In this document: piece after piece, positions 31,443 to 36,361 of the stretch
Numbering within the stretch: position 1 is the first letter of the stretch
How the letters are laid out: each line of letters begins with the position of its first letter
From: a virus
Lineage: Duplodnaviria; Caudoviricetes
DNA length: 64,000 nt
Strand: one strand, 5' to 3'
Virus record (IMG/VR): IMGVR_UViG_3300033553_000052
Coordinates: 1,205 to 65,204 of that record
The notes under the pieces: generated by a model
What the model was told of the DNA's origin: nothing
The model's database searches: none
What the model saw: only the letters and a program-made list of their open reading frames with translations
Translations under genes and position numbers: made by a program

Positions 31443-31793
31443 ATGAGTGAAAAGATCATCGGGACCTTTTATGTGTCAGGCCCAATGACTGGGATCGAAA
31501 AGTTTAATTTCCCGGCATTCGAGAAGGCGGCGGCGACACTCAGGGCACTGGGCTACGCCGTACGCAGTGCCCATGAAGTAAAGCATGACGAGCCGGAAGG
31601 CAAGGGTTCGCTAGCGTGGGAAGAGTACCTTCGCGGAGACCTAATTGCAATGCTGTCTCACTGTAACGTCGTCCTGGTCCTACCGGGATGGACGGACAGT
31701 CGAGGCGCGAAACTCGAGGTTCATGTTGCCGAGGCTCTCGGTATGCCCATCTACACGCTAGACGACGAGGGAAACATAGAGAGGTTGAAGTAG
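31443..31793 (+). CDS. DUF4406 / nucleoside deoxyribosyltransferase-like protein
   Basis: YVSGPMTG...NFPAF...LPGW..SRGAKLE. Confidence 0.85.
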   Translation: MSEKIIGTFYVSGPMTGIEKFNFPAFEKAAATLRALGYAVRSAHEVKHDEPEGKGSLAWEEYLRGDLIAMLSHCNVVLVLPGWTDSRGAKLEVHVAEALGMPIYTLDDEGNIERLK

Positions 31794-32590: not shown

Positions 32591-33313
32591 TTGACAACTC
32601 ACGCTCTAATCTGGCACGGCGATGGCGTCGAGCTTAGCAAGAAGCTTAAGCCCGGCACCATCCAGTCTGTTATTACAGATCCTCCGTTCGGCGTTGACAA
32701 CCTCTCAAATATGGCGACCACCGCCGTGGGCAAGGAGTACGCCCGCAAGATTGCGAATGACGAATCGCCAGAACTGGCAATGGAGATCTTCACTAAGGTG
32801 ATGGCGGCGCTGATTCCATCCATGAAGGACGAGTCGGACATTTACATCTTCACGGCCCATCAAGTGCTTGAAGAGTGGCTCGCATTCACCAGGGAACTTC
32901 TCGAGCCGTACGGGTTCCGTCGCAAGGCCATACTGGTGTGGGAGAAGGACGGGCCTGGAATGGGCGACCTCAATACCTGGGGAATGGGTTGCGAGTTCAT
33001 CCTTTACTACAAGCGTGGCAACCGGGAACGTGGTGCGGCAAGGCGCAACAACGTTCTTCACATCTCACAGTTGCGACCTAACGAGTTGATTCACCCGCAC
33101 GAGAAGCCACAACAACTCCTCGAGTTACTGATCAAGCACTCGGTTAGCAAGGGAGACTGGATCGTTGATCCGTTCGCCGGCTCTGGAAGCCTTGTTAGGG
33201 CGGCGCGTGGCCTAGGCGTTAACAGCATTGGCATGGAGCTTGACGAAAAGAACTACACGCTCGCACTAAAGAAGCTCGAAGAAGGCGAGGGCGCAGGGTT
33301 CGACTTCGGCTAG
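32591..33313 (+). CDS. orphan beta-class N4C/N6A DNA methyltransferase
   Basis: TDPPF catalytic motif before HPHEKP and DPFAGSG SAM motif; no neighbouring endonuclease. Confidence 0.85.
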   Translation: MTTHALIWHGDGVELSKKLKPGTIQSVITDPPFGVDNLSNMATTAVGKEYARKIANDESPELAMEIFTKVMAALIPSMKDESDIYIFTAHQVLEEWLAFTRELLEPYGFRRKAILVWEKDGPGMGDLNTWGMGCEFILYYKRGNRERGAARRNNVLHISQLRPNELIHPHEKPQQLLELLIKHSVSKGDWIVDPFAGSGSLVRAARGLGVNSIGMELDEKNYTLALKKLEEGEGAGFDFG

Positions 33314-33335
33314 GAAATAAACTGGCGAGAGTCAC

Positions 33336-33364
33336 TTGCAAATTGGTGCGCGGTGCGGCATGAT
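33336..33364 (+). promoter_or_regulatory. possible promoter upstream of whiB
   Basis: TTGCAA-17-CATGAT. Confidence 0.45.
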
Positions 33365-33419
33365 AGGGCGTAGCATTACGGTGCCAGCATGTCAACCCAC
33401 GTCACAAGGAGCGTTACGA

Positions 33420-33940
33420 ATGTCAGAGGCAAGAGAAGTCCGGCCTGTAATCTTTGGTCAAACCGGAAGAGTGAGGACGGACTTCCGGCCACTTAACGAT
33501 CCGACAGTGGAGGAAGAGAAGCCCCTCCCAAAAGACGCACAGACTGGCTTGACCTCGCGGCCTGCGCAGGAACCGCCCCAAAGCGAAGGGGCAAAGAAGA
33601 TGAAGTCCAAGACCCCTTCTTCATCGACAAGTTCGGCGGAGGCCACGCCGGAAAGCTCCAGTGCTTCTCTTGTCCCGTCGTTGCTGAGTGTGAAGAATAC
33701 AGAAGAAGTCGAGGAATCAGCCACGGACTCTGGGGCGGACGAAACGAAGCCGACCGAGGAGAAGAGCTGGACGACGACGGTTCCGGAGGATCAACTTCTT
33801 CCGACGCCGGGTCCGCCGACTCCGACGATTCCAAAGCTCCCCTTCTAGTAGACGAAAAGATAGACTCGTGGGTAGACTATCTTGACGACATAGAAGAACC
33901 AGACGACCCAGCCGCATTTGAGATAGACGAAGAAGATTAA
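33420..33940 (+). CDS. whiB: WhiB-family Fe-S transcription factor expressed via -1 frameshift (join 33420..33533, 33533..33940; ~173 aa)
   Basis: -1 frame reads DWLDLAAC...DPFF...CFSCPVVAEC...HGLWGG then an acidic tail; in-frame TAA at 33494 and no start codon before the Trp; slippery C-CCA-AAA at 33527-33533; stop abuts the next gene's RBS. Confidence 0.8.
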
Positions 33941-33949
33941 GGAAACCAA

Positions 33950-35113
33950 GTGCATCCAAAGACAATCTCGGCGTCGGCGCTAAATACAGCCGACATGTGC
34001 CTTGCCAGGTACCAAGCAGAGAACATTCTGTTTACGCCAACCAACGCGGACAAGTCTGCCGCTAACGTTGGAACAGCCTGCCACGCGGCGCTGGAGAACT
34101 ACGTCCGTATTGTCTATATGGAGAGGGCACAGAAGCCATCGTTTGATCTTCTCGGAACGCTGTACGATGTGGCGTTCAAGAAGACCTTCGACACGGTGGA
34201 AGCAAGCGGCCCGCTCTTTGATGACGGCTTCGACCTACTCAAGCGCTGGTTCCTTCGCACCGACTTGAGCGATGTCACCGTTGTCTCGGTTGAGAAGAAG
34301 ACGCGGTTCCCTATTCCGACTAGCCAGGGCGACATTCCCTTTACCTACATCGTTGACAGGGTTGACCTGATTCAAGAGGGAGACCGAAAGATTCTCCGGA
34401 TCGTTGACTACAAGACCATTCGGGCCTTCTTGTCACACGATGATGTGCGCGAGAAGCTTCAGGCTCGTGTATATGACTTGATGATGCGTATTGAGTGGAA
34501 GGGTCAGGGCATTGACGAGTTCCAAGTCGTGTTCGATCTGCTTCGACACGAGCAGGTTGGTGTTATCTTCAGTGCCGAAGAAGCAAAGGAAGCCTACTAC
34601 GGAATCATCGCAAGGGCAGAACGTATCCTTGCCACGCCAGACGAGAACCCACCAGAGACGCTAAACCCGGAGTGCCCGTACTGTGTTCGCAAGACACAGT
34701 GCCGAGCGCTAAGGAAGAATATTCAGGGCGGCGGTCTATTCTCAATCCCCGACATCGACGCGGCAGTTGGCATGCGGCACGAACTTGACAGCCAGTCAAA
34801 GGGCCTCAAGTCAGCCATGGAGGAACTGGACTCGTACATCATCGAGTACTCGAAGCAGAACGACGCGCTGACGTTCACCACAGATGACGACCATCGGGTG
34901 ACGATCTCCGCTCGCAAGACCAGGGACGTCAACAACACAACAGCCGCCTCGATACTTGGCCCCGAACTGATGAAGCGTTATGGCAAGATCGGAGTCGGGG
35001 ACATTGACCAGATCATTAGGGATGAACTTGTTGACGCCGAGACTGCGGAGAAGTTACGCAAGGCAATCGGCTTCAAGCTGAGCGCCCCATCAATTAAGAT
35101 CACAAAGAAATGA
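33950..35113 (+). CDS. Cas4/RecB-like PD-(D/E)XK exonuclease
   Basis: C...GTACH, VEKK, VDRVD, IVDYKT, QARVY and CPYCVRKTQC motifs. Confidence 0.85.
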   Translation: MHPKTISASALNTADMCLARYQAENILFTPTNADKSAANVGTACHAALENYVRIVYMERAQKPSFDLLGTLYDVAFKKTFDTVEASGPLFDDGFDLLKRWFLRTDLSDVTVVSVEKKTRFPIPTSQGDIPFTYIVDRVDLIQEGDRKILRIVDYKTIRAFLSHDDVREKLQARVYDLMMRIEWKGQGIDEFQVVFDLLRHEQVGVIFSAEEAKEAYYGIIARAERILATPDENPPETLNPECPYCVRKTQCRALRKNIQGGGLFSIPDIDAAVGMRHELDSQSKGLKSAMEELDSYIIEYSKQNDALTFTTDDDHRVTISARKTRDVNNTTAASILGPELMKRYGKIGVGDIDQIIRDELVDAETAEKLRKAIGFKLSAPSIKITKK

Positions 35114-35272
35114 CAATGTTGGTCACGGTATGGCCCGGCAATGGCTGGGGGAATCTCGATTCTAACGGCCCTTTATTGTTGGGGTGGCTGGTTGCACCTA
35201 TCCGGGTCCAGAATCTAGCCAGCGCGGCGCTGGTGGCCAGCCGCAGGCAACACACGAGGGAAGGGTAGCGCC

Positions 35273-35455
35273 ATGGAACGTGTCACATGTCCGACGTGCG
35301 GCAAACTGGTAACGGCAATGAGGCTTGAACTTAACGACGTTACCGGAAGTGTCACCTACTCATGTGGTGATGTCTACACATTCGACGCAACAAGTCCCCC
35401 GAGGATGAAGAACAACAAGACACCAAAGAAGAGTCACGACATACGGATATACTAG
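35273..35455 (+). CDS. small zinc-ribbon protein
   Basis: CPTCG...SCG; GAAGGG RBS. Confidence 0.65.
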   Translation: MERVTCPTCGKLVTAMRLELNDVTGSVTYSCGDVYTFDATSPPRMKNNKTPKKSHDIRIY

Positions 35456-35460
35456 AAGAG

Positions 35461-35500
35461 CAAAAGGCGCGACCCAATCCAACGGGCCGCGCCTTTTCTC
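35461..35500. terminator. bidirectional intrinsic terminator between early and late arms
   Basis: AAAAGGCGCG...CGCGCCTTTT with T-tracts on both strands. Confidence 0.85.
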
Positions 35501-35503
35501 TGT

Positions 35504-35923
35504 CTACTGCATTTCCACAAGTGGTGGCGGAGGTGCAACTGTTACTCCAAGCTTTTCTAACTGCTCTACGAGCATCCTGTCATACTCAAGGTGGGCGTAG
35601 ATCTGGTGATTGTAAAGCTCCATCTGATCTCCGCGCTTGTTCTCGATGAGCTCAAGATCGGACACCCTGTTGCGCATGTGTTCGAGATTAAGGTTAAGCC
35701 TTTTGTTTTCATCTTCGAGCCGCTGAACTATTCCTCCGGCAGCCTGACTGATGATATTTGTAGCCTCGGCGCTCAACTTCCTTCTGTTCACCATGGCTGT
35801 AATGATGGCAACAATCACTGCCGTGATGCCAGATGAGCTGATAAGTAAGATGAGCGTACTGATGTTATTCTGCGACTCCGCTATAGCCGAGTTCGCCGCC
35901 ATGATTACCATTGGCAATAGCAC
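35504..35923 (-). CDS. lysis-cassette membrane protein (1 TM + coiled coil)
   Basis: TM ILLISSSGITAVIVAII then heptad repeats; last gene of lysis cassette. Confidence 0.7.
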   Translation of the reverse strand: MLLPMVIMAANSAIAESQNNISTLILLISSSGITAVIVAIITAMVNRRKLSAEATNIISQAAGGIVQRLEDENKRLNLNLEHMRNRVSDLELIENKRGDQMELYNHQIYAHLEYDRMLVEQLEKLGVTVAPPPPLVEMQ

Positions 35924-35926
35924 GCT

Positions 35927-36361
35927 CTACTCACCAATCCTTTCGGTTATATTACCGCCGCGCTTTATTACAGCCCTGACTACTACTTCGATTCTTACCC
36001 ACTGTATTAGGCACGCAACCCCAAGCATGGTAAAAAGAAAGGCTATTGGGAAATACGATTCATGGGCAAGTATCAACATTATAGCAGCGTTTGTCCAGCA
36101 CAGCGCCGATAGGGTAATGAGCCCAACTTGTTCAAGGAGTAGGCCGGTACTTCTTTTTTCCATCCTCACGCCCACTAAGGTCAGGATGGAACCAAGTGCG
36201 AATGCAACTCCCCATGGGATATTAAACCAGGTAGGAATGTTCTCGCTTATCTCTTTCGGCCACAAGACGCCGAACACAGATGCACCGCCAACAACGACAG
36301 AGCCAAGCATGGCGATCACCTCGAACGGGTGCCTACCAGAGTTAACTACTCTTGGCTCCAT
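35927..36361 (-). CDS. lysis-cassette 4-TM membrane protein
   Basis: Four hydrophobic segments. Confidence 0.75.
   Translation of the reverse strand: MEPRVVNSGRHPFEVIAMLGSVVVGGASVFGVLWPKEISENIPTWFNIPWGVAFALGSILTLVGVRMEKRSTGLLLEQVGLITLSALCWTNAAIMLILAHESYFPIAFLFTMLGVACLIQWVRIEVVVRAVIKRGGNITERIGE

Follow-up and report, generated by a model that had tools for sequence, protein, structure and literature searches.

Evidence for a conserved −1 programmed frameshift that joins a leader peptide to a WhiB-like protein in actinobacteriophages

WhiB-like (Wbl) proteins are the commonest regulators carried by actinophages, and how these phages express and use them is poorly known. The subject of this analysis is a WhiB locus of a virus of the class Caudoviricetes, contained in a 64-kb stretch of DNA (hereafter “the window”) that covers positions 1,205 to 65,204 of the IMG/VR virus record IMGVR_UViG_3300033553_000052, a 65,204-bp sequence with direct terminal repeats. 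The locus very probably employs a genuine and conserved −1 programmed frameshift, in which a tandem slip at the heptamer C_CCA_AAA would yield a leader-WhiB protein of 173 amino acids (aa) beside a 142-aa product. Ribosomes would start at ATG 33420 and read a conserved leader of 38 codons. A fraction of them would then slip back by one base at 33527-33533, where tRNA-Pro and tRNA-Lys could re-pair on CCC AAA, and a Shine-Dalgarno (SD)-like GGAGG located 13 nt upstream probably assists this step by pairing with the anti-SD sequence of the 16S rRNA. Slipped ribosomes would proceed in the −1 frame and complete the 173-aa fusion, the sole predicted route to the four-cysteine WhiB domain, while unslipped ribosomes would finish the 142-aa protein, composed of the same leader and an unstructured tail. 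We infer the slippage itself, its rate and the SD-like stimulation from the sequence.

The architecture suggesting this route had been pointed out in a sequence-only reading of the window, and its elements are borne out base for base (Table 1). The open reading frame (ORF) that starts, with a ribosome-binding site, at 33420 crosses the heptamer in zero-frame phase, as CTC CCA AAA. The WhiB frame is shut upstream by a TAA at 33494 and open from 33497 to 33940, i.e., from before the heptamer into the WhiB domain. Direct reading of this frame between 33497 and the first cysteine codon (Cys1, 33563) reveals no ATG, GTG or TTG, and no near-cognate codon (CTG, ACG, AAG, AGG, ATH) was found by eye before Cys1. 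At the position where short homologues start with M-x-R-A-A-C, four residues before Cys1, the window reads L-D-L-A-A-C. The GGAGG lies at the place and spacing given for it, and both protein lengths hold: 38 leader codons and 135 codons of the −1 frame add up to the 173-aa slip product, whose stop codon TAA (33938-33940) lies 9 nt ahead of the GTG at 33950, versus 142 aa for the unslipped product.

Motifs of this kind are infrequent in the coding DNA of the window. Among 19,007 codons of 67 crude genes we counted 26 in-frame X_XXY_YYZ heptamers, 8 of which have A or T as Y, and from these rates 0.01-0.03 heptamers are expected in the stretch of 22 codons over which a shift could give access to WhiB. 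In-frame CCCAAAA occurs once in the 67 genes, at the WhiB locus. The GGAGG motif is present 71 times in 55,212 coding nt, corresponding to 0.006 expected occurrences in the spacing window of five positions.

The −1 frame of the window encodes a predicted WhiB-like protein of the PF02467 family. The product of the WhiB-frame ORF, termed P0001, matches PF02467 (Whib) over residues 17-88 with 35.5 bits (cut-off 23.6; E 1.5e-8), phrog_472 with 3.9e-11 and the PDB chains of solved WhiB, WhiB1, WhiB3 and WhiB7 structures with 1.4e-5. The WhiB signature is complete, as had been read from the letters, and comprises W-x5-C, DPFF, C-x2-C-x5-C and GLWGG, the cysteine codons being located at 33563, 33662, 33671 and 33689, ahead of GLWGG. 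Residues C23, C56, C59, C65, G77 and W79 are invariant across P0001 and 12 homologues, the best homologue among 1.84 billion representatives shares 44% identity, and AlphaFold assigns block-mean pLDDT values of 87-91 to residues 51-90. The protein thus resembles other Wbl proteins in its C-x32-C-x2-C-x5-C spacing, its G[ILV]WGG turn and a score above the curated cut-off. Unlike them, it is devoid of its own start codon and would carry a 38-aa leader from another frame as well as a C-terminal tail of 59 aa. Some Wbl proteins carry a basic C-terminal tail. The tail encoded at 33761-33937 (DDDGSGG...EEPDDPAAFEIDEED) is strongly acidic, includes one predicted helix (P0001 residues 122-130) and is absent from the 12 aligned homologues and from four other aligned members of the locus family described below (L006-L009).

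A frame break of this sort could simply be an error of sequencing or assembly, or stem from a recent frameshift mutation; leader and WhiB would then form a single uninterrupted ORF in the true or ancestral gene, and the copy in the window would be broken. Such an ORF would indeed be restored by one base more in the C or A run at 33522-33533. The break was checked on Logan contigs from two samples of one study (X1 and X2), which agree with the window at every base over 32870-36000 and show no indel. Their agreement is not fully independent, because one contig may be the source of the window, and contigs drop rare variants, such that a minority variant with an extra base might exist. Relatives in two further samples (X3, X4) are present as short contigs that do not reach the heptamer. 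Despite these two points in its favour, we regard an error or recent mutation as extremely improbable, in the light of a divergent relative and of the locus family.

The relative, P0003, was the single one returned by a protein search with the frame-0 product (P0002, 142 aa) and shares 57% identity over 100% of P0002. In the N-terminal part of the leader, 24 of 25 residues are identical. P0003 is known as a protein only and was analysed by codon logic; its encoded Y-P-K is at most compatible with the heptamer, which tempers the case. Of the differences after the heptamer that a single-base change can explain, 23 fall on zero-frame position 2, 6 on position 1 and 2 on position 3 (23 versus 6: binomial p 0.0023). 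The WhiB frame has its wobble base at zero-frame position 2. Moreover, the −1 frame of P0003 can encode the WhiB residue of the window at 63 of 73 core positions, a value reached by 0 of 5000 permutations, compared to 48 of 73 for the +1 control, and all four cysteine positions remain possible. The same frame can hold no NTG codon, because there is no Cys or Trp ahead of the equivalent of the tryptophan.

By this logic, the changes in P0003 are of the synonymous type in the WhiB frame; this frame has been subject to purifying selection since the two sequences split, and the frame break is older than that split. These two findings all but rule out an error or a decaying pseudogene. With two samples yielding identical contigs and P0003 keeping the break, the latter is no assembly artefact. 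The family points in the same direction: WhiB is in the −1 relation to the leader in 18 of 19 loci, even though the metagenomic nucleases next to it are merely 29-38% identical to that of the window. Furthermore, neither a search of 5.8 billion proteins nor the 150 listed of 215 WhiB homologues yielded a leader-WhiB protein in one uninterrupted piece. Near relatives did not turn up in other searches either: INPHARED contained no blastn match to 33300-34000, no viral or genome contig fitted a degenerate DNA pattern for DKFGGGHAGK, and single-protein scans of IMG/VR and the JGI metagenomes (with P0001, the nuclease and an alignment of P0002 and P0003) found no near relative and returned L001 only.

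The family comprises 19 loci, all analysed with the same script. Nine are metagenomic (the window, L001/L005, L003, L004, L006, L007, L008, L009 and L013) and ten belong to the cultured phages ReqiDocB7, RobinSparkles, Perlina, Reynauld, Gmala1, GMA3, TIN4, Woes, GTE7 and Monty. L003, L004 and L006-L009 were gathered via nuclease alignments and L013 via an alignment of −1 products; L001, from IMG/VR, has the order small ORF, WhiB, nuclease, and its WhiB is 38% identical to that of the window. All 19 loci consist of a homologous leader ORF, WhiB and then a Cas4/PD-(D/E)XK nuclease, either directly or a few small genes on (the nuclease of L013 lies outside this check). The nuclease directly adjoins WhiB in the window and most other loci, and 2-3 small genes lie between them in RobinSparkles, Gmala1 and GMA3. 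A DNA methylase is annotated upstream in ReqiDocB7 and Perlina, directly before the leader ORF, and in TIN4, Woes, GTE7 and Monty, a few small genes away. Mycobacteriophage Fruitloop (cluster F), L015, L016 and L018 were rejected as members, since their upstream genes are unrelated and their WhiB genes have normal starts.

Conservation in related phages, which the sequence-only reading had named as a check, is evident at the level of both frame and motif. The exception to the −1 relation is L004, where WhiB lies in the same frame as the leader with a stop codon between them. A canonical heptamer occupies the homologous in-frame spot in 16 of the 19 loci, namely CCCAAAA followed by G in the window, L006, L007, L008, L009, L013, ReqiDocB7, RobinSparkles, Perlina, Reynauld, Gmala1 and GMA3 (n = 12), and CCCTTTA followed by G in TIN4, Woes, GTE7 and Monty (n = 4). 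The block CCCAAAAG is the sole invariant one in a DNA alignment of six metagenomic members, and five loci of 5-7 kb each contain no further CCCAAAA on either strand. The heptamer is also the exact point at which the −1 frame opens in RobinSparkles and Gmala1. Eight loci (the window, L006, L007, L013, TIN4, Woes, GTE7 and Monty) have no ATG, GTG or TTG in the WhiB frame before Cys1. Taken together, the heptamer in 16 loci, the conserved break and the purifying selection on the WhiB frame in a relative strongly support the proposal that WhiB of the window is reachable only via a −1 slip at C_CCA_AAA.

Leader and WhiB might instead be two independent overlapping genes, with WhiB started internally from a non-canonical codon or by reinitiation, and the heptamer kept for another reason, for instance as the amino-acid motif P-K. 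Some features of the family weigh in this direction and against an obligatory slip. L001/L005, L003 and L004 lack the heptamer and keep the leader ORF as a gene of its own, apart from a WhiB that possesses a start codon; accordingly, a leader-WhiB fusion is not indispensable to the module. In addition, an ATG is found 5 codons before Cys1 in L008, L009, ReqiDocB7, Perlina and Reynauld and 10 codons before Cys1 in Gmala1 and GMA3, and RobinSparkles has a GTG 34 codons before it. In these loci WhiB could be produced on its own, with no need of a slip.

The arrangement of two independent genes nevertheless appears improbable. It does not account for the eight members devoid of ATG, GTG or TTG before Cys1, the window among them with no near-cognate codon seen. 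Peptide motifs in the −1 frame are conserved far upstream of any candidate start: PK[RS]L[IV]C[ST]G[IV]C or PFRC[TN]G[IV]C follows right after the heptamer, where there is no start, and C.CGEG and then L..A.FL...W are found further on. The exchange of CCCAAAA for CCCTTTA in four members alters the zero-frame residues from P-K to P-L and keeps slipperiness, as predicted by a recoding signal and not by a protein motif. Finally, the codon that precedes the heptamer has C as its last base in every case.

The same fusion protein would also arise by transcriptional slippage, in which RNA polymerase adds a base in the C or A run and renders part of the mRNA continuous. Transcriptional slippage is known in bacteria and phages, and it generally needs runs longer than 3-4 bases. 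The runs at the heptamer are just 3-4 bases long (CCC, AAAA), and those in CCCTTTA are even shorter. In the available text of Sharma et al. (PMC4066793), transcriptional slippage is tied to the 7-base homopolymers AAAAAAA and UUUUUUU. The strict codon phase of the motif in 16 of 16 loci corresponds to what tandem tRNA slippage predicts, and not polymerase slippage. We therefore consider the latter very improbable and favour a slip of the ribosome.

The efficiency of a ribosomal slip would depend on the heptamer and on any stimulatory elements. According to the available text of Sharma et al. 2014 (PMC4066793), V_VV.A_AA.R heptamers are among the most efficient ones in E. coli, and C_CC.A_AA.A is listed among the motifs that exceed 0.1% without stimulators. 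An SD-like GGAG or GAGG ends 9-14 nt upstream of the heptamer in 7 of the 16 loci bearing it, compared to 6.4% of background positions. A local stem at 33546-33577 (−10.4 kcal/mol) begins 12 nt after the heptamer of the window. Plausible stems are also present in L013, where a hairpin of 10 bp stands 5 nt past the site, and in L007, where the distance is 6 nt and the stem is long and imperfect.

Four points temper the case for the frameshift and its stimulation. The efficiencies are E. coli measurements, not actinobacterial ones. Of the 16 heptamer loci, 9 either lack the SD-like element or have it outside the range, and the binomial p of 3e-5 for its enrichment ignores the relatedness of the loci. 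The downstream fold of the window is no better than that of shuffled sequences (z 0.17 and z 0.22), so the GC hairpin at ~33557-33576, which had been put forward as a stimulator, is not sustained. Likewise, none of the six members that were folded beats its shuffles (z −1.36 to 0.46) in a search that covered structures other than pseudoknots.

The frame-0 ORF had been noted as the reading frame that contains the slip site. It does cross the heptamer, yet it is not merely a carrier, as it belongs to a conserved leader family. Leaders follow the pattern M...P-[VFL]-x-F, 8-12 residues, [DN]-F-[RS]-P, an acidic stretch and x-P-K at the heptamer. A hidden Markov model (HMM) of 13 other leaders, built with the window and P0003 excluded, ranks the frame-0 ORF of the window top of 1223 six-frame ORFs (E 5.5e-5; next 0.63). 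Pairwise BLASTP and hhalign comparisons of P0002 with the leaders of single relatives were not significant, and an HMM built from two sequences gave a weak result. P0002 itself matched nothing when scanned directly against PHROG, and the protein atlas returned no usable match. The leader ORFs of the cultured phages belong to phrog_14812 (unknown function) or to phrog_6890, which is labelled endonuclease; we saw no support for this RefSeq/PHROG label on the leader ORF.

Beyond the heptamer, the zero frame of the window continues for 104 codons. Together with L006, the window represents a short form of the locus without a Cys-rich linker, and thus its zero frame spans the whole WhiB domain. Selection on this tail as a protein was considered and rejected: the tail stays open in 32% of synonymous resamplings, and the substitutions relative to P0003 follow the WhiB frame. 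No secondary structure is predicted for it and the pTM is 0.12, which is weak evidence in view of a shallow alignment. The zero-frame tail is probably incidental and not selected as a protein. The zero-frame products of the window (33837-33848), P0003 and Reynauld (L026, a Rhodococcus phage; 1172-1183) all end in L-P-F, which is probably a coincidence, as these ends do not fall at homologous positions with respect to WhiB.

The long forms of the locus harbour a Cys-rich linker in the −1 frame between heptamer and WhiB, in which CxxxC is followed by CxCGEG (four cysteines; Table 1). This linker could form a second metal site. The low-complexity zero-frame tail over the linker is fairly conserved between Woes, Monty and TIN4, and the overlap region of the long forms may be truly dual-coding.

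The arrangement appears to be found in many sequenced phages, where it is unannotated or mis-annotated. A tblastn search of two −1 products against INPHARED matched 157 and 241 records, of which 22 and 106, respectively, cover at least 80% of the query. The larger numbers were obtained with the L013 product, and phages of Gordonia, Rhodococcus and Tsukamurella are among the matches listed. The matches usually span two annotated features, “hypothetical protein | WhiB”. In the records of cultured members, WhiB is absent from the annotation of TIN4 (KR011064) and GTE7 (NC_016166), a 33-aa stub in Woes (KU998240) and Monty (KU998241), and given a late start in the others. None of the 10 cultured records contains an annotated join at leader-WhiB.

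This situation may be compared with the −1 frameshift in the G/GT genes for tail assembly chaperones of tailed phages, reportedly described by Xu, Hendrix and Duda in 2004 and cited in PMC11751726. In both cases a conserved −1 slip in a phage gene would yield two proteins with a common N-terminal part, its position is conserved while the sequence diverges, and different lineages use different slippery motifs. In contrast to G/GT, the extension at the WhiB locus is a transcription-factor domain and not an assembly protein, and in 8 of the 19 loci it has no other route of expression. The G/GT shift is routinely annotated in GenBank, whereas the leader-WhiB shift is annotated in 0 of 10 member records. 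The window itself contains a candidate copy in the customary G/GT order: a tail assembly chaperone gene (52720-51942, minus strand; phrog_3096, 3.1e-56) precedes an ORF of 74 aa in the −1 frame of that gene, and this ORF lies upstream of a 1711-aa ORF taken as the tape measure gene by size and position. The permissive zone of this chaperone gene spans 67 nt and has no canonical X_XXY_YYZ; all it offers is five consecutive G immediately ahead of the TAG.

Similar to dnaX (tau/gamma) and to OrfAB of IS911/IS3, the WhiB locus combines an X_XXY_YYZ heptamer with an SD-like element ~10-14 nt upstream (13 nt in the window). The former systems have a proven downstream stem-loop or pseudoknot, whereas none is supported at the WhiB locus, and their products are a polymerase subunit or a transposase instead of a regulator. 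A further parallel are the primase halves gp50/gp51 of Mycobacteriophage Bxb1, overlapping actinophage ORFs thought to be joined by frameshift or bypass (PMC12646305, available text). For these the mechanism is given there as unclear and no canonical heptamer is reported in that portion of the article, while at the WhiB loci a canonical heptamer is conserved.

We found no description of frameshifting in WhiB genes in the full-text literature, subscription journals not being covered. In the available portions of PMC12646305 and PMC11751726, the frameshifts mentioned concern primase or tail chaperones and not WhiB. The 2476 joined genes of PRFect (PMC10885494) comprise 2397 tail chaperones and 79 hypotheticals, and the available main text does not mention WhiB. 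The mechanism is canonical and known, and the recoded gene family is new, widespread and mis-annotated.

Should the slip be real, WhiB would be a transcription factor available solely as a frameshift fusion, which points to a fixed stoichiometry or a low dose. It would also point to a functional link between leader motif and WhiB, since three relatives (L001/L005, L003 and L004) have them as separate genes side by side. The purpose may be to hold WhiB at a fixed ratio or a low dose, or to have it delivered by the leader motif. We lean, by a narrow measure, towards an extended interpretation, according to which actinobacteriophages possess a second conserved frameshift beside that of the tail chaperone. 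A short host-directed leader (P-V-x-F ... D-F-R-P) would be slip-joined at CCCAAAA or CCCTTTA to WhiB, in the long forms via the CxxxC...CxCGEG linker. Many sequenced phages would have the system in un- or mis-annotated form, both frames of the overlap would truly be coding, and the balance between free leader and leader-WhiB would depend on the slip rate. If so, the annotation of WhiB in phage records needs correcting, and a second conserved training family would become available for frameshift predictors, which are trained almost only on tail chaperones. The slip is directly testable, as cultured members grow on Gordonia terrae 3612.

Table 1. Features at and around the leader/WhiB locus (positions of the window, unless a locus is named)
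Feature	Position	Strand	Basis
N6/N4 DNA methylase, upstream neighbour	32591..33313	+	Pfam PF01555, 5.8e-22
Shine-Dalgarno AAGGAG of leader ORF, 8 nt ahead of ATG 33420	33406..33411	+	sequence and start-candidate table
Frame-0 ORF (P0002), 142 aa, ATG 33420 to TAG 33846-33848	33420..33848	+	sequence
Leader, 38 zero-frame codons (MSEAREVRPVIFGQTGRVRTDFRP...PLPK), common to both predicted products	33420..33533	+	P0003 identity, leader HMM
TAA closing the WhiB frame upstream	33494..33496	+	sequence
Internal SD-like GGAGG, 13 nt upstream of heptamer, candidate stimulator	33509..33513	+	sequence; family count
Putative slippery heptamer C_CCA_AAA and invariant next G	33527..33534	+	sequence; invariant block CCCAAAAG in six-member alignment; 12 loci
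−1 frame after predicted slip, 135 codons and TAA: WhiB domain and 59-aa acidic tail	33533..33940	+	PF02467, phrog_472
Zero-frame continuation, 104 codons and TAG, Ser/Thr/Pro-rich, overlaps WhiB domain	33534..33848	+	sequence
WhiB domain, P0001 residues 17-88	33545..33760	+	PF02467
PD-(D/E)XK (Cas4-like) nuclease, downstream, syntenic; bait for relatives	33950..35113	+	Pfam PF12705, 5.2e-19
Cys-rich linker	L007 2129-2390; L008 2244-2400; L009 2576-2750; L013 2300-2470; cultured members L019-L029

A Pfam scan of the neighbouring genes places the locus in a replication and recombination module. The gene order is SNF2 helicase, a clamp-like match, DUF4406, RusA, N6/N4 DNA methylase, leader/WhiB locus and PD-(D/E)XK nuclease, the clamp-like match being weak (PF02768 at 22.4 bits, below the Pfam cut-off of 27). 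Scans for Rfam families and tRNA genes found none. An in-frame G_GGA_AAC at 31769-31775, 6 codons before the stop codon of the DUF4406 gene, leads into a −1 frame that ends after 7 codons and is probably of no significance.

The plus strand of the intergenic region 33314-33419 showed no sigma-70-like promoter. Read-through of the TAA from an ATG at 33389, which lies in the WhiB frame, was considered as another way into WhiB and rejected: there is no SD sequence ahead of this ATG, and the same TAA serves as the stop codon of WhiB itself. The proposal is also opposed by the permafrost relative X3 (~92% identical over 33094-33436), which has a 1-base deletion at 33406, inside that ORF. X3 additionally has a 1-base insertion after 33378, and both indels are consistent with non-coding DNA in this region.

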